DNA from: an uncultured Ignavibacteriales bacterium
GTDB taxonomy: Bacteria > Zixibacteria > MSB-5A5 > GN15 > JACZUZ01
Length of the DNA: 53,488 bases
Reading direction: 5' to 3'
NCBI GenBank assembly: GCA_964516945.1
Contig: CAZFAL010000002.1
Location: 1-53,488 of the forward strand
Position 1 is the first letter of the stretch, and each line of letters starts with the position of its first letter. This document shows, one piece after another, positions 39,270-53,484 of the stretch. The translations under genes and the position numbers were made by a program. The notes under the pieces were generated by a model that saw only the letters and a list, made by a program, of their open reading frames with translations, ran no database searches and had not been told where the DNA came from.

Positions 39270-39971
39270 CTACTCAATTTGTAGCGCCCTGACACACTCT
39301 ACCCCCGAAACATACTTTGAGCTTCTCGTGATGCGAAACGGAAACATTTGTGTGATAGCAGCGGCCTGTTCAGAATTGTCAGCTTCATACTTCAGTTCCA
39401 GTATCAGATTTGACATGTCTGCCGCCTGATTGACGAGTCCCGGTCCGCAGGGGCCGATTGGCAGATACTCCATGCGAGAATCAAGTGTCAGACGAAACAT
39501 TTGATTCTGCGAAATATAGTATCTACGAAGATATCGATTCAGTAGTGTCGGCTCCATCAGTGACAGAGAAAGTTTTAGCGACTCAGGAAGCGCCGATTGT
39601 GCAAACGCGCTCTGGAGCGCCCGGCCTGTCAAGCCGTTGTCAATCGCCAATTTGCCGATTTGATACCGTTCTTTCCAACCGAGCAGACCGTCTTTGATTT
39701 TGAGTTCCAACACACAGTCCGCATTTGAGTCTACCTGCGAGCCGTACCAGCGAACACGCGCCTTGATACGGTTGCCTGACCCCGAAATGTTGTCCCAGTA
39801 GTTCTTGAGGTCAAGTGTGTCGAGATAGATGTTGTTGATAGCCCGTTGGTAGAACACTTCGCGAAACATGGCCGGATGAGAATAAATCAGCGCTTCCACT
39901 TCGGCATAGGATATATCCGAAATAAACATCTTGCGTTCGAAACGCCCCGGTTCGGTATGTGCGCTAAGCAT
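39270..39971 (-). CDS. VTC-domain (CYTH-like, polyphosphate polymerase domain) protein
   Basis: GRFERKMF..., INNIYLDTLDL.., RIKARVRWYG, VLELKIKDG pattern typical of bacterial VTC-domain proteins. Confidence 0.75.
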   Translation of the reverse strand: MLSAHTEPGRFERKMFISDISYAEVEALIYSHPAMFREVFYQRAINNIYLDTLDLKNYWDNISGSGNRIKARVRWYGSQVDSNADCVLELKIKDGLLGWKERYQIGKLAIDNGLTGRALQSAFAQSALPESLKLSLSLMEPTLLNRYLRRYYISQNQMFRLTLDSRMEYLPIGPCGPGLVNQAADMSNLILELKYEADNSEQAAAITQMFPFRITRSSKYVSGVECVRALQIE

Positions 39972-40021
39972 AGTCTTGTTGTGATGAGAGTGAGCAGTCT
40001 GTGTGTCAGAATTACATCAGA

Positions 40022-42664
40022 CTAGTTGGCGCTTGCGGTTGCCTTGTTCTTGTAAATTAAATCATAAACATGGCTGTGGCTCTGAATGACTCGTGCGCCA
40101 TCTACATAGAGAAACGATGTGTTTTCGACCAGATAGGGTGTTTGAACATTCTGCATTGTCAATCCGCTGATGTTCACCCTCGCTCCGCCGAATTCAGATT
40201 TTTTTTGGTAGACCGCAATGCCGGTCTCGCAACCGACCGCTTTCATCCTCTTGATTGTAGCTTCAGAAAGGTCTTTACCGGCAAGCGCTATTTTTGCGCC
40301 GCGCACAGAAAGATCTGTAATTGTCGCCACACTTCCCTCACCGAGACTCACTCCTTTATCAGCGGCGCCCCGGATAGTCACTTGTGATATATCCAGTCGA
40401 CTTCCGGAAACATCAACCGCGTCATTTCCTGAATTGATAAATGTGCAGTCCTCCAATGAGCCGTCGCTGAAGTCAGTGTCCAGCGCATCGGAGTAGGCGC
40501 CTTCAAACACAGTTCCGGTGATAGCGTAATCGGAGTGGACAATGTTGAGCGCATCCTCGGAGTGACAATTACGGAACAGCGAATTGCGAATCTCTACCGG
40601 TGAATTGTAGAATGTCACACTGCCGGAGAGGGCCCAGCCGACTTTTTGTGGATTTGTCAGAGATACAAAGTGGACATATTCAAGAATCGAAGCGCCGGAG
40701 CTGTTGAGAACAACCAGGCCCTGACCGGAGTCAGCGCTGATAAGAATTGGACGCTCACTGTCGCCTCGGAACGCCAGTGGAGAATGAGAAATAACAGCGG
40801 CGTTATTCGTAAGCGTCAGCTTGACATCCGGCGGGCAAATGAACAGATACCCCGCCGGGACTATCATGTCGTGGTCTATTACCCATTCGCCGGGTTTGAT
40901 TATGATTTGCTTGCGCGATGTATCAACATCAATGAACGGAAACTGACCGAGATTCGACTCTCTGCGCATGATGTCATCGACAAACAAGCTTGAATCAATC
41001 CGCCTCCAGTTATGAACTTCATCCGACAATGTTGTATCTATGCCCGGCAGGTGGAAATGAATACGGATATCAGGCCTGCTCTCAGACAATGTGTCGTCCG
41101 GTTGGCTGACAGCGCTGTCCGGGTAAGCTACGAAAGTGACATTCTGATATGACAGTGGTTGGGGCAGATGACGCCCCGGTATCAAAAAAGCGCCCCCTGC
41201 AGGCATATATGGTTTGCCGTCAACAGTAATGCCGGTCACAATCACCGGCAGTTGTTGCACATTGGCGATTTCCAATTCGCATCGCCGCTTTCGCAGGGAA
41301 ACGTTGTTTGCCATTACATACTTAACCGGATTGAGGAATCGTCGGATAAATTTCTGATTTGTATGCAATACTTCTGGGGAGAACCGAAACTGAGGATACG
41401 TACTAAAGATGGCGCTCAGGTTGTCTTCTAATTCCGGCTGAATGTCGTTCCAGAAATCTGTCACATACTGCGGATCTGCGAAGCGATGTAATGTTGCGAG
41501 GTATTTCCCGTAGAACGCCGAATCCTGAAATAACTGGCTGAGGAAAATCTGCCGTATCTGCCCGGTCCAGGGATACTCCCGTTCTTTTTGGTACAAGCTG
41601 GCCAGCGTAATTGTCGGATGTCCGGCGTCATTGTCGTAGGGTATCGGCTCAAGTCTTGATGTGATAGGGTTGTAGTAAAAGCGCAATTGAATTGTCAACT
41701 GTCCGTGTTGTGCGCCGAATAAATCTGAAAGCGCCAAAAATCTCGCCAACTGGTCAGTGTCAAACACATCGGAAGTCGGAAGTTCACCGTCACGAAAACG
41801 CTCCAGAAGACTTGTCGCGATTCGATACTGAGCAAAAAGCGTCGAATCATTCCTTGTTTTGTTTGTTTGAAACATGTCGAATGGCAGGGAATAATAATGT
41901 CCGGCGCCGGGACGGGCGTGCTCGGTCTCACGCTTGTCTGTGTCCCGCTCTGTCCACCATGATGTTTCGTCAAACTTGACAATCGGCGCCTCACGACGGC
42001 CATTATGCTCAACGAGTCTTTTTTCAAAGCTTTCTTCAATCGCATAAACGCCCATGTCCACACCATTGAGAGACACATCAACGAACTTGTACCGCAGGGC
42101 TATCAGACCCTCGCGCCTGACGGCCTCCAGGTAGATCCACTCCCAGACATGATTGCGAACTTTTGGATGTTGCAGGGAAAAGCGCTTCATGCCGAACAAT
42201 GTGCTGTCGTCACGAACTTTGACACGCAATGACCATTTGTCAGTGTCGAGGTGATCGATGTCATCACCTTTGAGACGTAGTTTGACGCTCAGGTCTTTGT
42301 CCTGATAGCGGATTCGACCCTTCACCCAACTGTCTTTGGTAGTGATGATTCTGCCGATACGCAACGCCTCCTGCCGTTTGGCAGAAAGTTGTTGGAACTC
42401 CTTAAAGGGTATATCAAGCGATATACGTTCAGCGTGCGAGAAAAATCCTTTGATGAAATGCTTCGGTAAATCTGTGTTGCTTAAAATTTTTGTGTAGACA
42501 AGTTGTAGAACTTTGAAGCGCTGGTACGAAGCGCCGGCGAGAAAGACTATCACTATTGCGAATATGACAAAAAGGATTCTGAAAGACAGTCTGCTACGGA
42601 TGTTCTTCAGCGTTGCGGATACTGCCTGCGAAGCCCGGCGGTTCACCGAACCTTTTATCAGCAT
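40022..42664 (-). CDS. CotH-family (atypical kinase fold) protein with N-terminal TM anchor and C-terminal right-handed beta-helix-like region
   Basis: I prefer the ATG at 42664, 2 nt after the DUF4956 stop, which avoids a 77-nt overlap. CotH-like core (FGMKRFSLQHPKVRNHVWEWIYLEAVRREGLIALRYKFVDVSLNGVDMGVYAIEE). The C-terminal ~300 aa have repetitive beta-helix-like segments. Confidence 0.75.
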   Translation of the reverse strand: MLIKGSVNRRASQAVSATLKNIRSRLSFRILFVIFAIVIVFLAGASYQRFKVLQLVYTKILSNTDLPKHFIKGFFSHAERISLDIPFKEFQQLSAKRQEALRIGRIITTKDSWVKGRIRYQDKDLSVKLRLKGDDIDHLDTDKWSLRVKVRDDSTLFGMKRFSLQHPKVRNHVWEWIYLEAVRREGLIALRYKFVDVSLNGVDMGVYAIEESFEKRLVEHNGRREAPIVKFDETSWWTERDTDKRETEHARPGAGHYYSLPFDMFQTNKTRNDSTLFAQYRIATSLLERFRDGELPTSDVFDTDQLARFLALSDLFGAQHGQLTIQLRFYYNPITSRLEPIPYDNDAGHPTITLASLYQKEREYPWTGQIRQIFLSQLFQDSAFYGKYLATLHRFADPQYVTDFWNDIQPELEDNLSAIFSTYPQFRFSPEVLHTNQKFIRRFLNPVKYVMANNVSLRKRRCELEIANVQQLPVIVTGITVDGKPYMPAGGAFLIPGRHLPQPLSYQNVTFVAYPDSAVSQPDDTLSESRPDIRIHFHLPGIDTTLSDEVHNWRRIDSSLFVDDIMRRESNLGQFPFIDVDTSRKQIIIKPGEWVIDHDMIVPAGYLFICPPDVKLTLTNNAAVISHSPLAFRGDSERPILISADSGQGLVVLNSSGASILEYVHFVSLTNPQKVGWALSGSVTFYNSPVEIRNSLFRNCHSEDALNIVHSDYAITGTVFEGAYSDALDTDFSDGSLEDCTFINSGNDAVDVSGSRLDISQVTIRGAADKGVSLGEGSVATITDLSVRGAKIALAGKDLSEATIKRMKAVGCETGIAVYQKKSEFGGARVNISGLTMQNVQTPYLVENTSFLYVDGARVIQSHSHVYDLIYKNKATASAN

Positions 42665-42665
42665 G

Positions 42666-43349
42666 TTATACAACTCCCTTATTGTCGAGGAATGTGATAC
42701 GGATGCGGGAGCTGAGTTCGTTGAGCGAGTTGCGACCGGCATTCAGCTGAGCAAAGTCTGAGAACTCCACCAGAAACGAAGCTTCAAGCGCATTGTCTGT
42801 TTCATCAAACCGTCTGAGGTTGACCATTGATGCAGTGGCGGAGAGTGTGTCCACAATTTTATCAAGGGACACCTGTTCATCTTTGGGTACACTGACAGAC
42901 AGATTGTAATTGTGCGTGATGCGTTTTGCGCGGGTGCGGTTCTTAACGATGAGCGCAACAGCTATCATGACAAACGCCAGCAGTGTTATCAACTGCTGAT
43001 TAGCTCCCAATCCGAGACCGATTGCGATTGAAAGAAACAAATATGACAACTCTTCCGGTTCTTTAATCGCGGCGCGAAAGCGCACGATAGACAGCGCGCC
43101 GACCAGACCCAGCGACAGAGCCAGGGATGACTTGACAATCGTGATTATCACCATCGTTGTCATTGTCAGTAGCACAAAGTTTTCGGCAAAAAGAGACCTG
43201 TTTGACAATGAACGGCCATAGCGAACATACATGCGGCTGAGGATATAACTCAATACTCCGGCCAGAGCCAGATTGATAATAAACGGCGCAAGTTCAACAG
43301 GAATGTTACTACTTGAAAGGAATTCTTGAAAAGAGCGAAATTTATTCAT
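42666..43349 (-). CDS. DUF4956-family membrane protein
   Basis: LSLGLVGALSIVRFRAAIKEPEELSYLFLSIAIGLGLGA is the characteristic motif. First gene of the DUF4956-CotH-VTC operon. Confidence 0.75.
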   Translation of the reverse strand: MNKFRSFQEFLSSSNIPVELAPFIINLALAGVLSYILSRMYVRYGRSLSNRSLFAENFVLLTMTTMVIITIVKSSLALSLGLVGALSIVRFRAAIKEPEELSYLFLSIAIGLGLGANQQLITLLAFVMIAVALIVKNRTRAKRITHNYNLSVSVPKDEQVSLDKIVDTLSATASMVNLRRFDETDNALEASFLVEFSDFAQLNAGRNSLNELSSRIRITFLDNKGVV

Positions 43350-43390
43350 TGAGACGCAATCTTTCTGAATCGATTCGTTGTCTGTCTGCT

Positions 43391-43414
43391 CCCTGCCCCG
43401 CTCCGCCCCGCCCC
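43391..43414 (-). repeat. G-quadruplex-type tract on the sense strand, 42-65 nt upstream of the DUF4956 start codon
   Basis: Plus-strand C-runs at 43391-93, 43396-99, 43406-09 and 43411-14, with loops of 2, 6 and 1 nt. Confidence 0.6.
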
Positions 43415-43560
43415 TGAGGGCGCCGAGTGAGTCAGCCGGTTATTGAAATCGCTCTCTTTGGAGAGCGGCAACATCCGCAAAAAAACTACGGACTCGAAAG
43501 CGCCAAATCAACCAATAAACACGCTTCGGCAAAAAACCATTTCAAAGGGAATCCGACCCC

Positions 43561-43598
43561 AAAAAAGAAACTCCCGAACTTGTTACACCTTGGGAGTT
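43561..43598 (-). terminator. Rho-independent terminator, homologous to the one after tRNA-fMet
   Basis: Minus strand: aactccc / gggagtt 7-bp stem followed by a T-run (plus-strand aaaaaag). Shares a 20-nt identical block (ccaaaaaagaaactcccgaa) with 53362-53381. Confidence 0.7.
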
Positions 43599-43604
43599 AA
43601 ATCT

Positions 43605-43640
43605 TGGTAGGGGGGATTTGAACCCCCGACCCTTGAGGCT
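43605..43640 (-). pseudogene. Degenerate copy of the 3' end of tRNA-fMet (T-arm plus truncated acceptor plus CCA)
   Basis: The minus strand reads ..agggtcgggggttcaaatcccccctacca. This is identical to the T-arm of the intact tRNA at 53408-53484, but the acceptor 3' strand is shortened (6 C + ta versus 9 C + gcta). No matching 5' half was found. Confidence 0.65.
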
Positions 43641-44200
43641 TGTTGCTTAACCTTTGATTGTTGTGTCGGGTCTTGATTTTCGCAGAGCGAAAATTGTGAC
43701 CCGACACGTCACCCCGGTGCAAGGGGCTTGTTGAATAAACCCATGTACGTCACTTGCGAGGAGTCCGGCGACAGCCGGACGACGTGGCAATCTCCCGGCT
43801 ATGAATCGACGGGATTGCCGCGCTATCGCTCCCAATGACTGCAATAAATGACTTTTTCAATAAGCCCCAGGCGTCAGGTCACACGACAGCAAAAAACGCT
43901 GTCGCAAGACCTGCCGCAACTCGAGAAGACTTCTTCAACAAGCCCCTTGGGTCATCCCTGTTCATTGTATTCAACACGGGGTAATCCGTAAACGTCGACA
44001 GGTATGACTCTCTGATCTTACCCCGGTAAGACGGATATGTTAAGAAGACGGGACCTGCTGACTGAACGCCTGGTTTCCCGGATACGACGGACTCAACAAC
44101 AAAACACTTGCGTGTTTTCTGAGTCTCGCCGCCGTTAGTTGAGCGATGGTCTACAAGTCGGATTCCGGATACGTGTGGCGGCAATGATTCGGAAGTAAGT
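43641..44200 (-). ncRNA. Candidate large structured RNA or structured non-coding region of unknown class
   Basis: No convincing ORF. Nested perfect hairpin (43663-43672 / 43698-43707 enclosing attttcgc-aga-gcgaaaat). Hairpins at 43763-43780, 43884-43904 and 44090-44125 (the last has a GCAA tetraloop when read on the minus strand). 16-bp long-range complement 43720-43735 / 43934-43949. Strand and boundaries are uncertain. Confidence 0.4.
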
Positions 44201-44398
44201 TGGTGATTCCTTGTTGTTGAGTAGTGAACTATGTCTCATACGGAGACTGCAACAGTCCGGTAGTCCGAATCGAATCATTAAGGCGTATGTATCCTGTTGT
44301 TATGCAGGCAGTTATGGGATAGCGCGCCGGTTAATGGACGTCGAGCAAAAAAAATGGAGCATTCGAGCAATTATTTTGATTTTCCGGTCAATTAATCC

Positions 44399-44427
44399 TT
44401 GACATTGGCGACCTGGTTATCGATAAT
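44399..44427 (+). promoter_or_regulatory. Near-consensus sigma70-type promoter candidate for the cytochrome/oxidoreductase operon
   Basis: TTGACA (44399-44404), 17-nt spacer, GATAAT (44422-44427), about 135 nt upstream of the ATG at 44561. Confidence 0.45.
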
Positions 44428-44560
44428 CGTGGAGTGGGCTAGGCTAGGTGTCCGCGGTGAGGTTTATCATGAAGAGTTGAGAATCTCACTCGCGTACTTT
44501 CTACTATTGAGGTTTTGGTTCCTGAGAAGGAATGAATGGTTTCTTCTTAGCATGTAACTA

Positions 44561-45055
44561 ATGGTTGGATTAAAAGTGGACAAAGTAACTCACTACTTGC
44601 ATGCAACAGCGTTGAGTCTTTTTGCGATAGTACTCGGCGCCTGCAATTCAGGGCCGGCGGCGTCGAATATTGATTTGAGCGCCAAGGCAGATTCGGTTTC
44701 GGCGTCACTCGCGCAGAATCCGGTTGTCCAAAGAGGGTACGAGGTCTATCGCTCGCATGGATGCATTCTTTGCCATGGCCTCAATGGAGAGAAGGGGCGA
44801 AAGAACAGCAATGCAAAAACCGGTGACGCGACGCCGGCGCTAACCTATATCGCTGAAGGATATACAAAGAAAGAGTTTCAGAAAAAAGTACTCACAGGTG
44901 TTAAAACAATTCAACGAAAGGATACAACAGGCCAGGCGCCTCCCTGGCGGATGCCGGGCTGGCGGGGTGTCATCAGCAAATCGGAATTGGAAGATCTGAC
45001 CGCCTATGTTTGGCAGCTTTTGCCGCCGGATACAGGTGGTGACGACGATTGGTAG
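44561..45055 (+). CDS. Mono-haem class I c-type cytochrome, lipoprotein
   Basis: Lipobox-like FAIVLGAC. One CxxCH (CILCH). Distal Met candidate in WRMPGW. Confidence 0.8.
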   Translation: MVGLKVDKVTHYLHATALSLFAIVLGACNSGPAASNIDLSAKADSVSASLAQNPVVQRGYEVYRSHGCILCHGLNGEKGRKNSNAKTGDATPALTYIAEGYTKKEFQKKVLTGVKTIQRKDTTGQAPPWRMPGWRGVISKSELEDLTAYVWQLLPPDTGGDDDW

Positions 45056-45142
45056 GATGTAAAGCTACAAAACCGTAACAGGAGCTGTCAGCGAAAGCTG
45101 ATGTGAGGAACACGATTCAAAAAAAAGTGGAGGGTGGCTCGT

Positions 45143-46198
45143 ATGAAGTCAAAACTGCTAACAGCGTTAATCCTAAGTTGTACGCTCACGGGATTGGGAA
45201 ACTCAACCGCACACGCACAAACAGACAAGTTTGTGCTTGGTGGTTACATGGACTGGACGTACACGGTGTACGAGGCCGGACGCATGCCATCGACCTTTGA
45301 TGCGTTTCACTTCAATCCAATTTTCATCTATCAGATGGAAGACAACTTGATGGCTTCGTCAGAGATTGAATTCGAACATGCAGGAGATGAAATCAATGTT
45401 GAGTATGCACAGATTGACTATCTGTGGAATGATTATGTGACATTCACCGTAGGTAAGTTTCTGGTTCCCTTTGGCGCCTTCAACCGGCGCTTACACCCGA
45501 GTTGGGTAAACCGCGTTCCCGGTAAGCCGCTTTCAAACGAGCATGTCGTCCCGACAGACTGGAGTGAAATCGGTATCATGGCCTCCGGCGCTGTTGGCTT
45601 TGGTGAGAATGGTGGCCGTGTGAATTATGCATTCTATGTCGGCAATGGTTTGGAGGGGCCGGTTGGCTCAGACATTCGTGACCTGCGCCATGAAAAAGAC
45701 CCCCGCGAGATGAACAATGACAACAAAGCCGTCGGCGGACGCCTTGGTGTTGTGCCTGCAGCCGGTGTGGAGTTTGGCGTATCCGGGTACACAGACAAAT
45801 ACGATGATGTAGCTAATCCGGTCTTGAATCTGAACATGATTGGCTTTGACGCGGAGTTCCATCACGAGGATTATTTTGAGCTTCGCGGAGAATACAACCA
45901 AGCGAAAATAGACACGGCCGTTGGCAAGTCCGAGACGAGGAGTGGTTTCTACGCACAGGCCGCGCTAAAGCTCAGTGTCACTGACGAGGACATTCTGATG
46001 CCGGTGGAGTTGGCAGTGCGTTTTTCCGGTCAAAACTTCCCGGGTGAAATGAATGACATCTATGAAGTAACACCGACCGTAAACTACTATTTCGGAAGCA
46101 CATCTGTACTACGTCTCGGTTTTAGAATGAACGGTGAAAAAACAGGATACAAGACGGCCAACAATCAGTTCACCGCCTTGTTCTCCAAGGGGTTCTAA
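45143..46198 (+). CDS. Outer-membrane beta-barrel porin (possibly phosphate-selective porin O/P-like)
   Basis: The ORF opens with GTG at 45134. The ATG at 45143 lies 8 nt after ggaggg. Signal peptide ..LTGLGNSTAHA. Alternating beta-strand pattern. C-terminal ..LFSKGF. Confidence 0.7.
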   Translation: MKSKLLTALILSCTLTGLGNSTAHAQTDKFVLGGYMDWTYTVYEAGRMPSTFDAFHFNPIFIYQMEDNLMASSEIEFEHAGDEINVEYAQIDYLWNDYVTFTVGKFLVPFGAFNRRLHPSWVNRVPGKPLSNEHVVPTDWSEIGIMASGAVGFGENGGRVNYAFYVGNGLEGPVGSDIRDLRHEKDPREMNNDNKAVGGRLGVVPAAGVEFGVSGYTDKYDDVANPVLNLNMIGFDAEFHHEDYFELRGEYNQAKIDTAVGKSETRSGFYAQAALKLSVTDEDILMPVELAVRFSGQNFPGEMNDIYEVTPTVNYYFGSTSVLRLGFRMNGEKTGYKTANNQFTALFSKGF

Positions 46199-46261
46199 GA
46201 GCAGGACGCTACATAAACGAGTCCACACATAAGACAATGTATTGTTAGGAAGGTATGACAT

Positions 46262-46534
46262 ATGAAATTCACAAGAACATCATTCGGTAAGGTCCTGATA
46301 GGAGCGATAGTGGCAGTGTCATTTGTCGGCGTCACAACCGCGTTCTCCGGTCAAATGGACGGCGCGAAGGTCTTCAGGGACAACTGCACAAAGTGTCACA
46401 ACGAACGTAGTCCGATGGAAAAAACAGATAAGGAATGGCGTGTAGCGATTACGCATATGCGCACAATTGCGCAGTTGACCGCCAAGGAGTCACGCGCCGT
46501 TCTGAAATATCTGCAAGCTAATAACAAAGACTGA
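46262..46534 (+). CDS. Small secreted mono-haem (CxxCH) protein, paralogue 1
   Basis: Signal peptide, then CTKCHNERSP...EWRVAITHMR...AVLKYL. Same architecture as the next ORF. Confidence 0.7.
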   Translation: MKFTRTSFGKVLIGAIVAVSFVGVTTAFSGQMDGAKVFRDNCTKCHNERSPMEKTDKEWRVAITHMRTIAQLTAKESRAVLKYLQANNKD

Positions 46535-46570
46535 TTGACGCTGGAAGAACTATAGAAAGGATGGCCCCCG

Positions 46571-47005
46571 ATGCGACTACTGTCTCGTATTACACTTGTT
46601 TTGTTTATCTCGGCGATAGGAGCAAATCTCTTTGCGGAGAATGACAAGGATACAGCTGTTGATGAAGCGTTGCAGGATTCGTTGCGGCTCGCCGCGCTGG
46701 ACAGTGGTGTTGACACTATTGATGTTTCACATTATCCCGAGGAAATGCAACAATACTATGAGGTGTTGAAAGTCAAGTGCACGCAGTGTCACAAGCTTTC
46801 TCGTGTCATTAACTCGAGCTTTGCTCTCCCGGATGAGTGGAAACGGTATGTCAAGCGCATGCGTCGCAAACCGGGGTCCAAGATTAAGAAGAAGGACGCT
46901 AAGAGGATCTATAAGTTTCTTGTCTACGACTCTCAACAACGCAAGGCTGACTTAATCAAAGAGAAAACAGCTCTGGCGGAAAAAGAAGCGAACAAGAAGA
47001 AGTAG
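46571..47005 (+). CDS. Small secreted mono-haem (CxxCH) protein with Lys-rich tail, paralogue 2
   Basis: Signal peptide, then CTQCHKLSRV...EWKRYVKRMR...RIYKFL and a K-rich C-terminus. Confidence 0.7.
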   Translation: MRLLSRITLVLFISAIGANLFAENDKDTAVDEALQDSLRLAALDSGVDTIDVSHYPEEMQQYYEVLKVKCTQCHKLSRVINSSFALPDEWKRYVKRMRRKPGSKIKKKDAKRIYKFLVYDSQQRKADLIKEKTALAEKEANKKK

Positions 47006-47023
47006 AACTATAAGAGATTGAGC

Positions 47024-47560
47024 ATGGCTGAAACGACTGACAATGTGCAAGAGCGTCCGGCAAGACGCAACGGTTTACGGTTCCTGATTTATTCTGTTCT
47101 CGGGTTACTGGCGGGATTCTGGGGATATCGGGCTGTTGAGGCGTTGCAGTTAACACAGCCCTACAAGTTCAATCACGCAGCTCACTATCCAATGAATTGT
47201 GTTATTTGTCATAGCGGCGCCCGGAGTGAAGTCCACTCCGGGTTGCCGCCTTTTTCTACCTGCATGAAGTGCCATGCGACATCACCGTTGAAAGATAAAG
47301 CATCCCTGAGTGTGTGGCAGGAGGCGGAGAAGTCCGGCGCTCTTCGTTGGCGAAAACTCACTTCAACTCCAAATCATGTCTATTTTTCACATCGGCGCCA
47401 TACAGAGTTTGCAAAATTGGACTGTCAGACGTGTCATGGTGATATGCCGACACGAACATCACCACCTATGCTACCAATGAAGCGTGTCAGTATGAAGGCC
47501 TGTCGGGATTGTCATCGAAAAAATAACCAAACAACTGATTGCGCGCATTGTCATCGTTGA
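47024..47560 (+). CDS. Membrane-anchored penta-haem c-type cytochrome (ActA/QrcA/NrfB-like)
   Basis: N-terminal TM helix (LRFLIYSVLGLLAGFWGY). Five CxxCH motifs (CVICH, CMKCH, CQTCH, CRDCH, CAHCH) in ~180 aa. The ORF opens with TTG at 47018 and the ATG is at 47024. Confidence 0.85.
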   Translation: MAETTDNVQERPARRNGLRFLIYSVLGLLAGFWGYRAVEALQLTQPYKFNHAAHYPMNCVICHSGARSEVHSGLPPFSTCMKCHATSPLKDKASLSVWQEAEKSGALRWRKLTSTPNHVYFSHRRHTEFAKLDCQTCHGDMPTRTSPPMLPMKRVSMKACRDCHRKNNQTTDCAHCHR

Positions 47561-47590
47561 ACGAGAAGTGTTTCGCGCGCTAAGGCAACT

Positions 47591-49939
47591 ATGAATATCA
47601 CACGTAGAGACTTTCTGGCTTTCACCGGCTTCACACTGGTCGGAACACTGGGTGGCTGGTATTTCAAGAACCAGATTCTCCCATACGAGGACTACTATCT
47701 GGGTTCGGATTTCCGCATGCGTAAGGAAACATTTCGCACCGGTGTGTGTGGTATGTGTCCGGCGGGATGTGGTATCCGGGTGCGGTTGGTGGACGGTGTT
47801 CCGGTGCGAATTATGGGGAACCGGAACTGTCCAATTGGTGAAGGTGGTTTGTGTCCCCGTGGTCTGATGGGACTGGAGTTGCATTTCAATCCTGACCGGC
47901 TAGCCGGTCCGCTTGAGCGCTCAGGCCAGGGAGACGCTGCGCAATGGAAGTCAATTACATGGGATGAAGGTCTGAAAAAACTACGCGAAAAAGTCATAGC
48001 GGCCCAAGTATCTCAAAAAGAGTTATCCCAAAAAGGATTATCTCAAAAAGGATCTGTCCCAATCATGGCTCTCTGCCCTGATGAGCGTAGTGTACGGACC
48101 GAGTTGCTCGCACGAGCGCTGGAAAAGCTTGGCTCCGCCAATGGGCTTATTCCAGTCAACTCACAGAGAGACAATGCGACACGGAAGTCTCTTCAGCGAA
48201 TGTGCGGCTATACTGATTGGCCGGTTTATGATGTAGAGCGCTCGGACGTACTGATTGTCTTTGACACACCCCTCTTTAGTGGCTGGGGAAATTCAACTTC
48301 CATGGCCAGAATGTACGGTGATTTCCGTCGCGGACAGGACCGTCGCGGTCATATGATATTTGTCGGTAGCCGTCGCGGGCAGGAAGGCCGAGTGGCTGAT
48401 GAATACATAGAAGTCAAGCCGTATACCTCGGCAATTCTCGCATTAGGTTTAGTTCATGTGCTTCTTAGGGAAGGACTCTATGATAGTAGCTTTGTGAAGG
48501 AGCATTGTGCGGGATTCGCCGATTTCCGTGATGTCGCGCTGGCAAAATACACAACTGACTATGTCAGCGCTCAAACAGGTGTCCCGATAGAAACAATCAA
48601 CATGCTGGCGCGACGGATTGCCGCGAGTGAGCGACCGTTGGCTCTTGGAGAGCGCCGCCCGCAAGATTCCCACGTTGCCGAACAAATGGCCTATGTTGCC
48701 CTCAATGCAATACTTGGGAGTATCGGTGTGCGTGGCGGACTGGTTTTGCAGGAAAACCTGCGACTTAACACTGTGAGAAAAGCAAAATCAACTGTCACAG
48801 ACGATTCAAACTCAAAAAGTCTGATTGCCGCGACAGTGAATGAGGTCTTGCATAACAAAAACCTGGCGCCCAAAGTGTTGCTCATCGACAGAGTGAATTG
48901 CGGTTTGCTATCCACCACTGTCCCAGGTTGGGACGAGTTCATGCAACAGATTCCGTTTGTTGTAAGTTTTTCAGCGTATCCGGATGCAGGAGCGCAATTG
49001 GCGGATATGGTCCTTCCTGATGTGGATTTTTTGGAGAAGGCGCAAGACATAACAGGCGCCCCGTCGATTGAGAGCCCTTCGTTTGGTGTGACAGAACCGG
49101 TAGTCGAACCTCTCACAGACGGTAAAGACACGAATCATGTTCTGATGAACTTCTTGAGTGATGAGTTCCTCAAGACCGGGGTTGTTTCATGGGGCGACGC
49201 TGAAAAGGAAACTCGCAAACTGCGAGATGAATTGCATCGTGAATTGTTTGCGTTGAAACGCGGTTTAGTTTTTGACACAAAAATAACACGAGACTGGATG
49301 GAGAATATGGAATCCGGTGGGTGGTGGTCCTCGGATCTTAAGGATTTTGACTCGTTCGAGAGTCAACTGAATGAGAAAGGTGGCTGGACAGATCCATTCG
49401 TTCCTATTTCAGCGAGAAGAAAACGGGCATTGGGGACAGGACGACAGATAGATTTGCAACCACTGACAAAAGAGTTATCGGTAAATTCACTGGAGCGCGA
49501 GACACCGGCGCCAAGTGTCAATGGAACCAGTGTCAATGGAAAATGGAGCCAGCTACGCGCTATCCCGATATCGGCGCTGGCTCTATCGGGGCTTCCGTAT
49601 GGCAATGTCCCGCATCTGCTGGAATTCGCTGAACCCGGACTAATCTACGGTTGGTCGCCGTGGCTTGAGTTGCATCCTGACCTCGCCGCGCAACTCAAAG
49701 TTGCAGAAGATGACATGCTTGAATTGCAGACAGCAGGCGGAGTCCGCACATGCCGCGTTGTGATAAACAATACATTGCATCCGGATGTAGGCGCAATACC
49801 GCTTGAGATGTTCGGACTCGGTAACGGCAAATGGGTGCGCGAGAATATGCGGAAGCCGCTTGTACAAACCACAAACGATACACAGACAGTGAATGGCTCG
49901 TCGACAACAGGAATAGCGCTCAAAGTGCGAAAGGTGTAA
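47591..49939 (+). CDS. Tat-exported molybdopterin-oxidoreductase-family (MopB/CISM) large subunit
   Basis: Twin-arginine signal (TRRDFLAF). N-terminal FS0-type Cys motif CGMCPAGC...NCPIGEGGLCPRG. 782 aa. Contains an in-frame repeat-derived insertion (SQKELSQKGLSQKG). Confidence 0.85.
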   Translation: MNITRRDFLAFTGFTLVGTLGGWYFKNQILPYEDYYLGSDFRMRKETFRTGVCGMCPAGCGIRVRLVDGVPVRIMGNRNCPIGEGGLCPRGLMGLELHFNPDRLAGPLERSGQGDAAQWKSITWDEGLKKLREKVIAAQVSQKELSQKGLSQKGSVPIMALCPDERSVRTELLARALEKLGSANGLIPVNSQRDNATRKSLQRMCGYTDWPVYDVERSDVLIVFDTPLFSGWGNSTSMARMYGDFRRGQDRRGHMIFVGSRRGQEGRVADEYIEVKPYTSAILALGLVHVLLREGLYDSSFVKEHCAGFADFRDVALAKYTTDYVSAQTGVPIETINMLARRIAASERPLALGERRPQDSHVAEQMAYVALNAILGSIGVRGGLVLQENLRLNTVRKAKSTVTDDSNSKSLIAATVNEVLHNKNLAPKVLLIDRVNCGLLSTTVPGWDEFMQQIPFVVSFSAYPDAGAQLADMVLPDVDFLEKAQDITGAPSIESPSFGVTEPVVEPLTDGKDTNHVLMNFLSDEFLKTGVVSWGDAEKETRKLRDELHRELFALKRGLVFDTKITRDWMENMESGGWWSSDLKDFDSFESQLNEKGGWTDPFVPISARRKRALGTGRQIDLQPLTKELSVNSLERETPAPSVNGTSVNGKWSQLRAIPISALALSGLPYGNVPHLLEFAEPGLIYGWSPWLELHPDLAAQLKVAEDDMLELQTAGGVRTCRVVINNTLHPDVGAIPLEMFGLGNGKWVRENMRKPLVQTTNDTQTVNGSSTTGIALKVRKV
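48009..48053 (+). repeat. In-frame 3 x 15-nt tandem repeat inside the MopB-family CDS
   Basis: tatctcaaaaagagt / tatcccaaaaaggat / tatctcaaaaaggat. A second in-frame 2 x 15-nt repeat (agtgtcaatgga..) lies at 49514-49543. Confidence 0.9.
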
Positions 49940-50625
49940 TGCGTATGCCACGTTGGGGAATGGTAATAGATCTGGACAGATGTATTGGCTGTCAGGCCTG
50001 TACACAGGCGTGCGCTCAGGAGAACAATATCCCGTTTGGAGATTTCGAACAGTCCAAATTGCGCAGAAGTATTTCCTGGATTCAAGTGATGCCTATGGGT
50101 GAGGAGCGTGACTCGATAGAGCAGACAATGACACCGCTACTGTGTCAGCATTGTGACTCGCCACCCTGCACCCGGGTATGCCCGGTATCTGCAACTTACA
50201 AGAACAATGAGGGGATTGTCGCCCAAATCTACCCGCGTTGCATTGGTTGTCGCTATTGCGCCAATGCCTGTCCATACACGGTGAAGTACTTCAACTGGTT
50301 TGGTCCAAAATGGCCGGAAGAGATGGAGCAGTTACACAATCCGGATGTTTCTGTGCGCCCGGTCGGTGTCATTGAAAAATGCACGTTTTGCCATCACCGA
50401 CTGATTATTGCCAGAGAAAACGCTCGAGTTGAGGGGCGAAAGCTTGAAGAAGGTGATTTTTTGCCGGCGTGCGCTGAAAGTTGTCCAACCAAAGCGTTTA
50501 CGTTCGGTGATCTGGATAATCCGTCATCAGATGTCTCAAAAGCCGCAAGTGATTCGCGGGCCTATCAATTAATGGGGGACTTGGGGACGAAACCGAAAGT
50601 GCGTTACTTGAGAGCGATAGAATAA
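49939..50625 (+). CDS. Four-cluster [4Fe-4S] ferredoxin-type subunit (PsrB/NrfC/QrcC/ActB2-like)
   Basis: Start ATG overlaps the upstream TAA (TAATG). Cys motifs CIGCQACTQAC, CQHCDSPPCTRVCP, CIGCRYCANACP and CTFCHH...CAESCP. Confidence 0.85.
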   Translation: MRMPRWGMVIDLDRCIGCQACTQACAQENNIPFGDFEQSKLRRSISWIQVMPMGEERDSIEQTMTPLLCQHCDSPPCTRVCPVSATYKNNEGIVAQIYPRCIGCRYCANACPYTVKYFNWFGPKWPEEMEQLHNPDVSVRPVGVIEKCTFCHHRLIIARENARVEGRKLEEGDFLPACAESCPTKAFTFGDLDNPSSDVSKAASDSRAYQLMGDLGTKPKVRYLRAIE

Positions 50626-51986
50626 TGAATACGAACGCGCCAACTCCTGAATTTGATGATAAGCGTCTTCTTGAGCCGCTTCAGACAACCGGCAAAGAGT
50701 TTCGTATAGCGGTGACAGCGTTGCTTGCTGTTGTCGGCTGGGCGGCATTCTCCTGGGTCTGGCAGGTCAGTCATGGCCTGGGGATGACGGGTCTGAATCG
50801 CTCAGTGTTCTGGGGTATCTATATCACCAACTTCGTCTTCTTTATCGGTGTCTCTCATGCCGGTACGTTGATTTCCGCTATTCTGCGTATGACAAATGCC
50901 GAATGGCGACGCCCTATCACCCGTATGGCTGAAGTTATCACTGTTGCGGTGCTTTTCTTTGGAATAGCGAATGTGTTCTTCGATCTTGGCCGACCGGACA
51001 GAATTCTGAATATCGCTCTTCACCCCCATTTTACTTCACCGTTGATTTGGGACATTTGTAGTGTGACGCTCTATCTGATGGGAAGTTCATTTTATTTGTT
51101 TATTCCGCTGATACCGGACATTTATCTTCTCAAAGACCGCATAGGTGGCTGGCGCGGAAGGCTGTATCGCTGGATAGTTCGCATACTTCATTGGGATGAC
51201 TCCGAGCGGCAACGTATCAAACTCGAACGTATCATCACTATTGCGGCGCTAATTATTCTCCCTATTGCAGTGTCCGTCCACACCGTGGTCTCCTGGGTGT
51301 TTGCCATGACCGTGCAACCAATGTGGCATTCGTCCATCTTCGGACCATTCTTTGTTGTCGGGGCGATATTCTCCGGCATCGGCGCATTGTTGACCGCGAT
51401 GATTCTGTTTCGCAAGTTCCTCGGCTTGGAAAAATATCTCCTGCCGATTCATTTCAAACAGCTTGCCTCACTGCTCGTAGTAATGAGTGTCCTCTGGCTC
51501 TATTTTACGCTCAACGAATACCTGACGACATTCTATGGTAATGAGCCGAGAGAAATGTCAGTGTTTGCCTCAAAGTTCACCGGACACTTTGCCTATATGT
51601 TTTGGGGGATGGTCTTAACGTGTTTTGTCATCCCGTTTGGATTGCTATTCAAGAAGAAAAACAGAACTATCCGTCGCATATTCATCGCTTCAATAAGTGT
51701 AAACATCGGTATGTGGTTAGAGCGCTACACAATTGTTGTGCCGTCTCTCTCCCACACTCGTCTACCATACCCCATTGGCGCCTACACTCCATCCTGGGTT
51801 GAGCTTTCTTTGATGGCCGGGTGTTTCGCCGGTTTCGCGTTGCTGTATATGTCATTTTCAAAAGTGTTTCCAATTGTCTCGATTTGGGAAATGAAGGAAG
51901 GGCTGGAAAGTTCCGTGTCCATTATCTCTCGCCGCTTCATGTCGTACTTTGGAATTAGCTCAAAAGAAACGAAAGATTTACCATGA
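50625..51986 (+). CDS. NrfD/PsrC-family integral membrane quinone-interacting subunit (ActC/QrcD-like size)
   Basis: Start overlaps the upstream stop (TAATG). 453 aa, with about 10 hydrophobic helices. Confidence 0.8.
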   Translation: MNTNAPTPEFDDKRLLEPLQTTGKEFRIAVTALLAVVGWAAFSWVWQVSHGLGMTGLNRSVFWGIYITNFVFFIGVSHAGTLISAILRMTNAEWRRPITRMAEVITVAVLFFGIANVFFDLGRPDRILNIALHPHFTSPLIWDICSVTLYLMGSSFYLFIPLIPDIYLLKDRIGGWRGRLYRWIVRILHWDDSERQRIKLERIITIAALIILPIAVSVHTVVSWVFAMTVQPMWHSSIFGPFFVVGAIFSGIGALLTAMILFRKFLGLEKYLLPIHFKQLASLLVVMSVLWLYFTLNEYLTTFYGNEPREMSVFASKFTGHFAYMFWGMVLTCFVIPFGLLFKKKNRTIRRIFIASISVNIGMWLERYTIVVPSLSHTRLPYPIGAYTPSWVELSLMAGCFAGFALLYMSFSKVFPIVSIWEMKEGLESSVSIISRRFMSYFGISSKETKDLP

Positions 51987-53131
51987 ACTCGCAACGGATT
52001 GTCACAGGGGCGTTCATCGCAATACTCTTGACTGTTTCACTGGTAGGAGCGTCCGAAAAGCTCGGCCACATTGCCACCCCAATCAATGCGGTGAAGACGT
52101 TTGAAGCAAAACGCTGTGTGCGTTGTCACCTGATTGATGTCAGTTGGGAGGCGTATGGTCCGGATTTGGCGCGCGCATCATTGAGCGGCAACTTTTCGGA
52201 TATTGTCGGACGGATGTGGAACAAGGCGCCGGTGATGCTCAAGAAGATGAATGAGCTTGGCATTGAGTTTCCGACCATGCAGGCTGATGATTTGATTCGT
52301 GTCGCTTCCTTTGTCGGGGTGTATCAGAATATGCTCAGCAATTACACAAAAGACGCCGACATTGAACACGGCGCTACACTGTTTCACCGAACTAAGTGTG
52401 CAACGTGTCATGACAGTAAACGTATGCAGGGTTCGTTTGAATCCCCCATGTTGGCGCTTGTGGCTATGTGGAAGCATCAACAAAGCATGCGCGCAAAGAG
52501 TCCTCGGGCGCATGTGAAGTGGAATAACTTTACCGAGAGCGACGTGAAAGACCTGTTGGGATTTCTGACCGATGATGAATCTCAGGACAAAGGTCGGACT
52601 GCGCCACAGTTCTTGAAACCCGGCGACGCACAATTAGGCAAACAAAGTTTTGTGAAACTGAACTGCGGCTCATGCCATGATGGCGCAGGGGTGTCTAAGC
52701 ACAAGCCCGGCGGTTCGGAAGTCGTTGCAAGCAACGGACGTCTCGAAATAGGAAGTGTTATGGCCGCGCTCTGGAATCATAGCTCGCAGATGTGGCGCAA
52801 CTCAAATATGAGGCCGACCTTCACTGCGCAAACCCTGGCAGACCTTACTGCCTATTGGTATTCCGAAAGATTCGAACATTGCAATGACGACACAACCTCG
52901 GGTGAATCGCTCTTCGAGACAAAATCATGCGCTTCCTGCCATGAAATTGGCTCGGCCGACTTCACAATCCCTGATAATAAAGATGAACTTTTAGCGCAAA
53001 TGTGGAGCCATGTGCCGGATATGGTTGAAGAATGCACTGACAACGATATCAGTTGGCCACATATGCAACCGGGGGAGCTGTCGGCGATAGCGGAATATCT
53101 CATCGTTAGCGGCCGACAAAACTCACAATAG
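51983..53131 (+). CDS. Tetra-haem c-type cytochrome built from four tandem class-I-like domains
   Basis: ATGA start/stop overlap. N-terminal anchor or signal. Four CxxCH motifs (CVRCH, CATCH, CGSCH, CASCH), each followed by a [ML]W-x-[HK]...M motif (MWNKAPVM, MWKHQQSM, LWNHSSQM, MWSHVPDM). Confidence 0.85.
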   Translation: MNSQRIVTGAFIAILLTVSLVGASEKLGHIATPINAVKTFEAKRCVRCHLIDVSWEAYGPDLARASLSGNFSDIVGRMWNKAPVMLKKMNELGIEFPTMQADDLIRVASFVGVYQNMLSNYTKDADIEHGATLFHRTKCATCHDSKRMQGSFESPMLALVAMWKHQQSMRAKSPRAHVKWNNFTESDVKDLLGFLTDDESQDKGRTAPQFLKPGDAQLGKQSFVKLNCGSCHDGAGVSKHKPGGSEVVASNGRLEIGSVMAALWNHSSQMWRNSNMRPTFTAQTLADLTAYWYSERFEHCNDDTTSGESLFETKSCASCHEIGSADFTIPDNKDELLAQMWSHVPDMVEECTDNDISWPHMQPGELSAIAEYLIVSGRQNSQ

Positions 53132-53365: not shown

Positions 53366-53401
53366 AAAAGAAACTCCCGAAGTCTTTCAACCTCAGGAGT
53401 T
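53364..53401 (-). terminator. Rho-independent terminator of tRNA-fMet
   Basis: Minus strand: aactcc / ggagtt stem followed by a T-run (plus-strand aaaaaag). Confidence 0.7.
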
Positions 53402-53407
53402 CAATCT

Positions 53408-53484
<77 letters not shown>

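Follow-up and report, generated by a model that had tools for sequence, protein, structure and literature searches.

A stretch of 53,488 nucleotides (positions 1-53,488, forward strand) of contig CAZFAL010000002.1 of an uncultured Ignavibacteriales bacterium (GenBank assembly GCA_964516945.1; placed by GTDB in the Zixibacteria), called the window below, carries a nine-gene operon (g1 to g9; Table 1) that brings together c-type cytochromes, an outer-membrane porin, a MopB-family subunit, an Fe-S subunit and an NrfD-family membrane subunit. This raises the question of what kind of respiratory system the genes specify: a molybdoenzyme, a variant of one of the known quinone-linked complexes, or an apparatus of another kind. 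To our knowledge, alternative complex III (ACIII) and Qrc are the only characterized complexes in which a cofactor-less trio of MopB, Fe-S and NrfD subunits is joined by a multihaem cytochrome. We find that the operon is a member of the ACIII/Qrc superfamily whose layout is that of neither canonical ACIII nor Qrc nor Psr, as an initial annotation of the same DNA, made from its letters, had proposed. On the evidence of gene order and residue-level motifs, what is new here is an unnamed, widespread ACIII/Qrc-type lineage, a member of which is joined in this one operon to a split porin-cytochrome cassette of Cyc2-like architecture. Hence, we posit, with a probability of about 0.6, that the products of these two joined modules would constitute an electron path between the outer membrane and the quinone pool.

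The nine open reading frames (ORFs) are co-directional, span 44561-53131 of the forward strand as first annotated, and were assigned by Pfam and NCBIfam profile searches, neither of which yielded a chaperone assignment for any of the nine. From g1 to g9 the number of CxxCH motifs is 1, 0, 1, 1, 5, 0, (1), 0 and 4; the bracketed one, CTFCH in g7 and the thirteenth of the operon, is an Fe-S ligand motif and no haem site, which leaves 12 cytochrome sites. The overlaps between the last genes, TAATG at g6/g7, TAATG at g7/g8 and ATGA at g8/g9, are read directly from the sequence and thereby fix the start of g7 at 49939. The amino termini show a lipobox in g1, signal peptides in g2 through g4, a transmembrane (TM) anchor in g5, the twin-arginine translocation (Tat) motif TRRDFL in g6, a signal-anchor in g9 and none of these in g7. 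The promoter candidate is the sole plus-strand site in 43300-44700, a region in which 3 sites were found against 1.2 expected by chance. The description given in the initial annotation, comprising the co-directional block, the promoter candidate, the 12 CxxCH sites, the Tat signal, the FS0 motif, the four-cluster subunit and the three overlaps, is borne out in full.

The same nine-gene order is kept in the closest genome, that of the metagenome-assembled genome (MAG) Candidatus Zixiibacteriota Dive100_bin1.50 from a Southwest Indian Ridge vent (L001), whose MopB is 73% identical to g6, as well as in L003, L004 and L005, contigs from metagenomes of which L005 is cut after g8, and in the Zixibacteria reference genome RBG-1 (L043). 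Across these loci the identity of the MopB subunit runs from 73% down to 32%, and all haem sites of the operon are kept in its orthologues. Since the order recurs in these five loci, the arrangement is not due to chance; the flanking cytochrome and porin genes, whose association with the core was an element of the original proposal, are indeed conserved with it in these relatives.

Solved structures of ACIII include 6F0K, 6BTM, 6LOD and 8K9E. Structural-database searches with the core subunits g5, g7 and g8 return ActA, ActB2 and ActC as the top matches. The five CxxCH motifs of g5, which follow an N-terminal TM helix, are kept in all orthologues, and its PDB matches are the ActA chains 6lod_A (E = 7e-21) and 6btm_A (4e-17), while g7 matches the ActB2 domain of 6f0k_B (E = 5e-58). 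All 16 Cys of g7 are present and form four complete four-Cys groups, in the third of which the second Cys (C103, in a 227-residue numbering that starts at 49942) stands in place of a Thr of canonical ACIII: where ActB2 of Rhodothermus marinus and Roseiflexus reads C-x-G-T, g7 reads C-I-G-C. Work on DmsB and NarH has established that this second position of group III decides whether the quinone-proximal cluster FS4 is of the [3Fe-4S] or the [4Fe-4S] type. Because Cys replaces Thr in g7, its FS4 is predicted to be [4Fe-4S] rather than [3Fe-4S], and the subunit would, at the level of its motifs, carry four [4Fe-4S] clusters.

For g8, the best matches are the ActC chains 6f0k_C (E = 1e-66; 36% identity over 397 positions, 228 bits) and 6btm_C (1e-61). 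We mapped it onto R. marinus ActC with the residue list of Calisto and Pereira, according to which the quinol-site residues His139, Ser164, Asp169 and Asp253 are more than 95% conserved in ActC (PMC8076601). Of the channel residues, 12 of the 13 on the N-side and four of the six on the P-side are identical in g8, and Arg395 is likewise retained; this conservation of the ActC-type proton channels suggests that the membrane potential and the reaction at the quinone are coupled. At the quinone site, Ser164 and Asp169 are kept as Ser138 and Asp143, whereas His139 has given way to Asp120 and Asp253 to Val225. The last subunit, g9, has four conserved CxxCH sites, each followed by an MWxH...M motif, and a PDB search with it returned nothing useful (best E = 0.099). 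A natural fusion, P0280 (723 aa), in which g9-like cytochrome c domains are attached to the C-terminus of a g8-type NrfD protein, indicates that g9 is a subunit of the complex and that its N-terminal hydrophobic segment can serve as a membrane-spanning anchor. The distal part of P0280 looks frameshifted.

These features recur well beyond the Zixibacteria. We coined the name D-type for the previously unnamed ACIII-like lineage that is defined by the gene order g5-g6-g7-g8-g9, the quinone-site residues D-S-D-V/I, a four-Cys FS4 group, and the motifs MExGGWW and GGWxDP in an insertion of the MopB subunit, all of which are present in the operon of the window. The D-type loci counted here are the best 80 of 597 genomes matched in a scan of species representatives. 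All 80 have D-S-D-V/I at the quinone site, 76 of 78 have the four-Cys group III, with Cys for the [3Fe-4S]-forming Thr, and ActD or ActF is found in none of the 80, whereas gammaproteobacterial loci from the same search carry both. A g9-like four-domain tetrahaem gene adjoins the g8 homologue in 66 of the 80, so the terminal tetrahaem subunit, which the initial annotation had singled out as a special feature of this locus, is a common attribute of a large lineage. D-type loci occur in more than ten phyla, including Acidobacteriota, Thermodesulfobacteriota, Myxococcota, Binatota, Rokubacteria, Planctomycetota, Gemmatimonadota, Ignavibacteria, Bacteroidota, Nitrospirota and Zixibacteria, and a search with g8 gave 7999 matches at E <= 1e-20, the best 120 of which all read DSDV.

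In a neighbour-joining tree of the NrfD subunits from the fetched loci, which contained no bona fide QrcD as an anchor, g8 groups with proteins from Elusimicrobia, Ignavibacteria, Planctomycetes and others, all with D-S-D-V/I, and canonical ActC with H-S-D-D falls outside this group. The canonical rows comprised R. marinus, gammaproteobacterial ActA-B1-B2-C-D-E-F loci, a Nitrospirae locus with fused ActB and four-gene Blastocatellia loci. Among the rows compared, the type of quinone site and the FS4 ligand co-vary perfectly: all D-type proteins have Cys and all canonical ACIII, R. marinus included, have Thr. The D-type thus combines a QrcD-like Asp at the quinone site with a four-Cys FS4 like that of Psr, Dms and Nrf, a combination found in neither ACIII nor Qrc. 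Judged by these shared motifs and by synteny, g5-g9 represents the usual gene arrangement of an extensive ACIII-like lineage that has had no name and is distinct from canonical ACIII, Qrc and Psr/Arr. With the Qrc models below their cut-offs (see below) and the hallmark residues of ActC changed, neither its MopB nor its NrfD subunit falls within a characterized clade, which agrees with the initial proposal. Database labels for D-type subunits are generic or misleading ('NrfD/PsrC molybdoenzyme anchor', 'HybB-like', 'anaerobic selenocysteine-containing dehydrogenase', 'Qrc'), and the papers on Melioribacter, Caldithrix and the partners of anaerobic methanotrophic archaea describe canonical ACIII and Psr/Ttr but hold no data on the D-type.

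Whether this complex is an enzyme in its own right or an electron-transfer hub turns on g6. Its FS0 motif, CxxCxxxC...C, is formed by C53, C56, C60 and C88, which are invariant in the alignment. We rejected FS0 retention as a sign of catalysis, because ActB1 of ActA-F loci keeps the same motif. The molybdenum ligand of ArrA, Cys193, aligns with Asp194 of g6, in an R193-D194 pair that is invariant within the Zixibacteria; outside them D194 is not kept, and g6 has no Cys, Sec or Ser at the Mo/W ligand position. The molybdopterin guanine dinucleotide (MGD) hallmarks 'DPR', 'PGTD' and 'FGxN/DP' read GSR, PYTS and FDTP in g6. True enzymes among its matches have ICS(A/S)AGE, VIDP(Y/R)RT and PGTD, where g6 offers QRDNAT, VGSRRG and PYTS; their MGD hallmarks W(G/A)xN, (V/I)DP(R/Y) and PGTD correspond to FDTP, GSRR and PYTS in g6, and its MGD motifs are more degraded than even those of ActB1 in ActA-F loci. 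The Pfam scores are low, Molybdopterin reaching 41 bits and Molydop_binding staying below its cut-off. Further, g6 is the fastest-evolving and least conserved subunit of the core: against RBG-1 its identity is 32-33%, compared with 65% for g7 and 64% for g8. Catalytic subunits are usually among the better conserved parts of such complexes, the opposite of what is seen here, and characterized ACIII has no pterin. Given the missing ligand, the degraded motifs and the fast evolution, g6 is likely to be cofactor-less, and we consider it probable that it binds neither Mo nor W.

The alternative that survives best is that g6-g8 form a true Mo/W-bis-pyranopterin guanine dinucleotide enzyme of the Arr/Arx/Psr kind, possibly Asp-ligated, which draws from or feeds the quinol pool, the cytochromes being extra wiring and the porin admitting an oxyanion or sulfur substrate. 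Such an enzyme would share with our operon the MopB fold, the four [4Fe-4S] motifs with an FS4 as in Psr, Dms and Nrf enzymes, an NrfD-family anchor, and the FS0 motif and Tat signal, the last two of which do not discriminate, being found in ActB1 too. The best PDB sequence matches of g6 are PsrA and ArrA, with ActB1 marginal (6lod_B, E = 5.5e-4, profile A1), and Foldseek places its AlphaFold2 (AF2) model (predicted local distance difference test, pLDDT, 85.6) closest to ArrA (TM-score 0.73) and PsrA (0.67). The invariance of R193-D194 at the ArrA ligand position could be counted in its favour as well. Against it stand, besides the absent ligand, the loss of D194 outside the Zixibacteria, the eroded MGD motifs and the position of the MopB subunit as the least rather than the most conserved one, the ten-helix ActC-type anchor, the ActA-like and tetrahaem cytochromes, and the fact, detailed below, that the porin family tracks cytochromes and not MopB genes. 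We regard this alternative as unlikely, and the electron-transfer hub, one of the two options raised by the initial annotation for what it rightly saw as a distinct quinone-coupled module, as better supported than an oxyanion or sulfur-compound reductase.

An earlier account of such a locus leaned towards catalysis. In the parts of their study consulted, Castelle et al. 2013 (PMC3903129) describe a protein of RBG-1 as an undescribed oxidoreductase of the dimethyl sulfoxide reductase family, placed as a deep branch beside ArxA/ArrA, with a TAT signal and a [4Fe-4S] motif; monohaem and multihaem cytochromes neighbour it, and the Arr/Arx catalytic pocket is noted as not conserved. Since the description matches, the RBG-1 locus L043 is almost certainly the operon they meant, and this copy was in that sense known before. 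The account, as far as those parts go, treats the protein as a catalytic Arx/Arr relative and draws no link to ACIII/Qrc or to a porin.

Two further observations concern the MopB subunit. A lineage-specific helical insertion at about residues 514-630 of g6, which carries MESGGWW and KGGWTDP, is common to Zixibacteria, Gemmatimonadota and some others and may be a docking surface. P0012, a MopB relative of 27% identity, keeps the ArrA-like ligand motif HSSICS, which indicates that genuine enzymes and scaffold-type MopB proteins are intermingled at about 27% identity; its locus (L006/L007 8001-12855 and neighbours) has three MopB/Fe-S/NrfD sets and a protein with a cupredoxin domain.

We next consider the genes upstream of the core. 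The AF2 model of g2 (pLDDT 79.8) shows a barrel of 16 strands, into which a long and conserved loop (residues 109-146) projects, and is matched by Foldseek to the OmpC, Omp32 and OprP porins at TM-scores of 0.62-0.66 (OprP 2o4v and OprO 4rjx, 0.63-0.64). Its homologues of more than 50% identity, where the source is named, are from Zixibacteria, those of 35-44% from Gemmatimonadota, and those of about 30% from Bacteroidota. In 71 of 80 genomes the g2-type porin has a gene with a CxxCH motif as its immediate same-strand neighbour, against a background of 4.6% of distant ORFs. In Bacteroidota, Calditrichota and Chlorobiota the cassette consists of a class-I cytochrome, the porin and then a g3-like cytochrome; in Gemmatimonadota the porin is followed by a dihaem protein made of a g3-like half and a class-I half. 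The association extends to fusions, the fused haem-porin homologues of g2 being 408-563 aa long: a class-I cytochrome is fused to the porin in P0180 (L045 4277-5968) and P0407, the former with a g3-like gene next in L045, and a g3-like domain in P0358 (415 aa) and in L200 12768-13994 (408 aa), the latter a gene directly after a g5-g9 module. Such haem fusions number 3 of the top 150 in the wider porin family, whose 524 representatives at E <= 1e-30 mostly have N-terminal extensions lacking a haem site; six of these extensions, when inspected, look coiled-coil-like.

The porin cassette stands beside D-type modules also in Gemmatimonadota (L049, L064, L068, L072 and L198) and Omnitrophica (L054), and a Planctomycetota D-type module (L013) lies downstream of a multihaem porin-cytochrome complex (PMC10732223). 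Genes like g4 are found with the core in Elusimicrobia (L038), Omnitrophota (L179) and several Acidobacteria, and g1-like genes precede it in Vicinamibacterales loci. As several Acidobacteria have g1- and g4-like genes before the module but no porin, the operon of the Zixibacteria looks as though the porin-g3 pair had been inserted between g1 and g4. The proposal that an oxyanion enters through the operon-encoded porin is not favoured by these data. We tried g2 as an anion or oxyanion channel, with which the fold alone is compatible and which the cytochrome adjacency and haem fusions disfavour.

Among the small cytochromes, g1 has CILCH at residue 68, an MPGW motif that offers a distal Met, and the lipobox LGAC, which is present with its Cys in all orthologues. 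It was also considered as an ActE and rejected, there being no PDB similarity to ActE (best match E = 0.11). The g1 orthologue of the Dive100 MAG (L001 6765-7187) is only 140 aa long and has lost the distal-ligand region PPWRMPGW, a loss that probably reflects a frameshift or faulty assembly. Of the five g1 orthologues compared, four, all but the short one of L001, end in acidic residues followed by an aromatic one (DDDW, EEDDW or NEDEF; 45030-45052 in the window), and g4 has a conserved, extremely basic stretch at about residues 90-110 (46840-46900), RYVKRMRRKPGSKIKKK; these could be complementary docking patches. In g3, the haem motif CTKCH is followed by SP..E..D.EW....HMR, and genes resembling g3 come after the porin in Bacteroidota, Calditrichota, Chlorobiota and L045. 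The description of g3 and g4 as paralogues finds slight support in a BLASTP match of E = 0.001 (22% identity over 54 residues) and a common CxxCH...W...MR spacing.

In Cyc2, a single haem domain is N-terminal to a 16-strand OprO/OprP-like porin (PMC8406198). The window operon shares with the Cyc2 systems a porin of this kind tied to a single-haem domain, small periplasmic cytochromes, and an ACIII-type complex with an FS0-bearing ActB1. It differs in that g2 itself has no haem site, the haem domains being separate genes (g1, g3) that are fused only in homologues elsewhere, in that all parts are in one operon, and in that the inner-membrane complex is of the D-type and not ActA-F. We judged likeness to Cyc2 by its published defining motif and by architecture, with a total length of at least 365 aa as the criterion for a fusion. 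Of the Cyc2 PxL motif, g3 retains the Pro, five positions after the haem His, and lacks the Leu. The ACIII of neutrophilic iron oxidizers, for which a Cyc2 to Cyc1 to ACIII route running uphill has been modelled, has a split ActB1/B2 with intact FS0 (PMC4643136), and the gammaproteobacterial ActA-B1-B2-C-D-E-F loci likewise have split B1/B2 subunits with FS0 and a Tat signal. Hence, the split subunits with intact FS0, which the initial annotation had noted for the present locus, have precedents in ACIII itself.

Taking these homologies together with the motifs, synteny, co-occurrence and gene fusions, we propose that g5-g9 would form a complex of the ACIII/Qrc superfamily that is coupled to quinone, sits in the inner membrane and faces the periplasm, that in this complex g6 would be a scaffold keeping only FS0 and the membrane-anchored g9 would stand in for ActD/E/F, and that g2 and g3, with a class-I cytochrome such as g1, would form a porin-cytochrome unit of Cyc2-like architecture. 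Electrons might then pass, in either direction, between the quinone pool, clusters FS4 to FS1 of g7, the haems of g5 and those of g9, the soluble g4 and g3 with the lipoprotein g1, the g2 porin, and a small substrate with redox activity that would be located at the outer membrane or pass through it. Our leading guess for the latter is a metal ion, with Fe(II)/Fe(III) as the most plausible example. Weak hints at the substrate are offered by the neighbours of related operons: in RBG-1 (L043 8803-9258 and 20423-21062) an Rrf2-family regulator gene lies directly before the operon, and after it come two EamA genes along with genes for Fur and a TonB-dependent receptor, while an 85%-identical relative (L002 7309-10113) has a TonB-dependent receptor gene downstream as well. 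Class-I cytochromes of the His/Met type would fit a downhill oxidation of quinol; by analogy, the parallel with the iron oxidizers and the Qrc-like Asp would fit quinone reduction.

A more specific form of this proposal, which we offer tentatively and hold to have somewhat less than an even chance, is that the operon is a self-contained route between the outer membrane and the quinone pool, made up of two modules not recognized before. In it, a split Cyc2-like unit (g1, g2, g3) would act on metal ions, for instance Fe(II), at the cell surface, either oxidizing or reducing them, and a new energy-coupled branch of the ACIII/Qrc assemblage with a remodelled quinone/FS4 site would exchange electrons reversibly with menaquinone, for instance in an uphill reduction of quinone from high-potential cytochromes driven by the proton motive force. 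The split unit of such a route is widespread in Zixibacteria, Gemmatimonadota and Bacteroidota, and the complex branch in hundreds of species.

Several observations weigh against the proposed path. No g2-type porin is found nearby in 78 of the 80 D-type modules, so that the coupling is lineage-specific, and the published Cyc2 motif AxPxFAR[Q/K][T/Y] is absent from g1, g3 and g4 of five loci and from the fused homologues. The modelled fold of g2 is that of an ordinary general porin, and the protein might simply serve diffusion. The cassette of Bacteroidota is found among metal-stress rather than respiratory genes. The AF2 model of g6 is nearer to the ArrA/PsrA enzymes than to solved ActB, which is absent from the top 50 Foldseek hits, and the invariance of FS0, together with that of the ligand-position Asp in the Zixibacteria, would leave room for an Asp-ligated Mo/W site. 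Finally, the D-type lineage is known from sequence alone, from which neither the direction of flow nor the substrate can be derived.

The Bacteroidota loci deserve mention in their own right. In Fulvivirga kasyanovii (L119 9470-13270), and similarly in L120, L099 and L108, the cassette is surrounded by genes for an AraC regulator with a CPxC N-terminus, DUF2231, DUF302 and YHS proteins, and by eye the neighbours in L108 include ORFs like those of resistance-nodulation-division efflux pumps and a P-II-like protein. This context suggests for the cassette of Bacteroidota and Calditrichota a role in metal (copper?) stress rather than respiration.

A second alternative is a plain ACIII variant, that is, a quinol:cytochrome c oxidoreductase feeding ordinary terminal oxidases or reductases, with the porin a co-transcribed general channel. 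The database matches to ActA, ActB2 and ActC and the conserved proton-channel residues are what one would expect of it, as are the pentahaem ActA-like subunit, the Tat-exported MopB-like subunit with a four-cluster Fe-S partner in the split B1/B2 form with FS0, the ten-helix ActC-like subunit, and the class-I cytochromes g1 and g9, the kind that carries electrons to oxidases. Variants with a duplicated or multihaem ActE have been described (PMC5317091, PMC9386147), and the 'ACIII-like' cluster 4 of MBNT15, proposed for iron reduction, has ActABCD with a four-haem ActE-like protein; this cluster, unlike g5-g9, keeps ActD. In the window operon ActD, ActE and ActF are absent, with tetrahaem g9 in their place, and g1, although a monohaem lipoprotein, is not ActE-like. 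The quinone-site pair His139/Asp253 has become Asp/Val, and the ligand pattern that gives canonical ACIII one [3Fe-4S] and three [4Fe-4S] clusters has changed with it to four Cys at FS4. The helical insertion in MopB, the extra monohaem cytochromes and the porin are further departures. No oxidase or reductase was found among the window ORFs scanned (20 of the 30 of at least 180 aa), and a porin-cytochrome adjacency of 71 in 80, with fusions, goes far beyond coincidence. We consider this alternative improbable, a little more so than the Mo/W enzyme.

That the operon encodes a QrcABCD orthologue, passing electrons from a periplasmic hydrogenase or formate dehydrogenase via low-potential cytochromes to menaquinone for sulfate or sulfite respiration, is very unlikely: the order of multihaem cytochrome, MopB-like, Fe-S and NrfD genes, the periplasm-facing disposition, the Asp at the quinone position of the second TM helix, which matches QrcD Asp120, the carriage of reductive dsrAB by some Zixibacteria MAGs (PMC9769843) and the transcription under anoxia of Acidobacteria four-gene clusters labelled Qrc (PMC10564751) would suit it, and QrcA, QrcB and QrcC are the best NCBIfam models for g5, g6 and g7, but all four equivalog scores lie far below the cut-offs (86.6 bits against 180, 244.5 against 440 and 279.4 against 400, with QrcD barely detecting g8 at 37.7 against 570), g8 is much nearer to ActC, the partner cytochromes are of class I and not c3-type and come with a tetrahaem subunit and a porin, and the FS0 and four [4Fe-4S] motifs differ from the cofactor-less QrcB and the quinone-proximal [3Fe-4S] cluster of QrcC (PMC13059093, PMC6303296). 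A protein that JGI labels QrcB, P0043, does stand in the four-gene setting expected of Qrc.

Table 1. Features of the operon and their positions in the window.
Feature	Position	Strand	Basis
Sigma-70-like promoter candidate, TTGACA-17-GATAAT	44399-44427	+	Consensus match at 11/12 positions
g1, class-I monohaem cytochrome c lipoprotein, 164 aa	44561-45055	+	Pfam Cytochrom_C, 36.7 bits
g2, outer-membrane porin, 354 aa	45134-46198	+	Weak Porin_O_P match (20.1 bits), C-terminal Phe
g3, small secreted monohaem cytochrome, 90 aa	46262-46534	+	One CxxCH (CTKCH)
g4, secreted monohaem cytochrome with very basic segment, 144 aa	46571-47005	+	One CxxCH (CTQCH)
g5, membrane-anchored pentahaem cytochrome, ActA/QrcA-like, 180 aa	47018-47560	+	Cytochrome c7/c3-type, five CxxCH
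g6, Tat-signal MopB-family subunit, 782 aa	47591-49939	+	Pfam Molybdop_Fe4S4 and Molybdopterin; Molydop_binding below cut-off
g7, four-cluster Fe-S subunit, ActB2/QrcC-like, 228 aa	49939-50625	+	16 Cys in four ferredoxin-type groups
g8, NrfD-family membrane subunit, ActC-like, 453 aa	50625-51986	+	Aligns over all of ActC
g9, tetrahaem subunit with N-terminal anchor, 382 aa	51983-53131	+	Four CxxCH in four class-I cytochrome c domains

The operon ends beside a tRNA gene: a tRNA-Met (CAT) gene lies on the opposite strand (53408-53484, minus), 277 bases downstream of the g9 stop, and is followed by a terminator-like hairpin of 14 pairs (53371-53402, minus). On the other side, the operon is preceded by a gene-poor gap of 1.2 kb (43350-44560) with no convincing ORF. 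An Rfam scan of the 1.3-kb region upstream of the operon gave sub-threshold matches only, among them an 18-base match on the minus strand (43611-43628) to the 3' end of transfer-messenger RNA (RF00023, model positions 346-363, E = 1.8e-4, far below the gathering score), which could be a relic of an integration site or due to chance. Directly upstream, 39270-43349 of the minus strand holds a cluster of genes for VTC-domain, CotH-kinase/beta-helix (906 aa) and DUF4956 proteins, and further upstream (20245-22131, minus) is a gene for an Nramp transporter fused to a universal stress protein domain. An Rrf2 regulator gene such as that upstream of the RBG-1 operon was not found in the window by tblastn.

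We present the D-type as a third, uncharacterized branch beside ACIII and Qrc, verified in at least 80 of the 597 candidate genomes at species level. The co-varying changes at the quinone site and FS4 offer a concrete hypothesis on its quinone chemistry and on the direction of electron flow. Metagenomic pipelines would at present call the locus a molybdoenzyme, probably wrongly. The operonic link to the porin-cytochrome cassette, in turn, suggests the D-type complex as a possible partner, in the inner membrane, of extracellular or metal redox reactions in those phyla for which such a partner has been missing.

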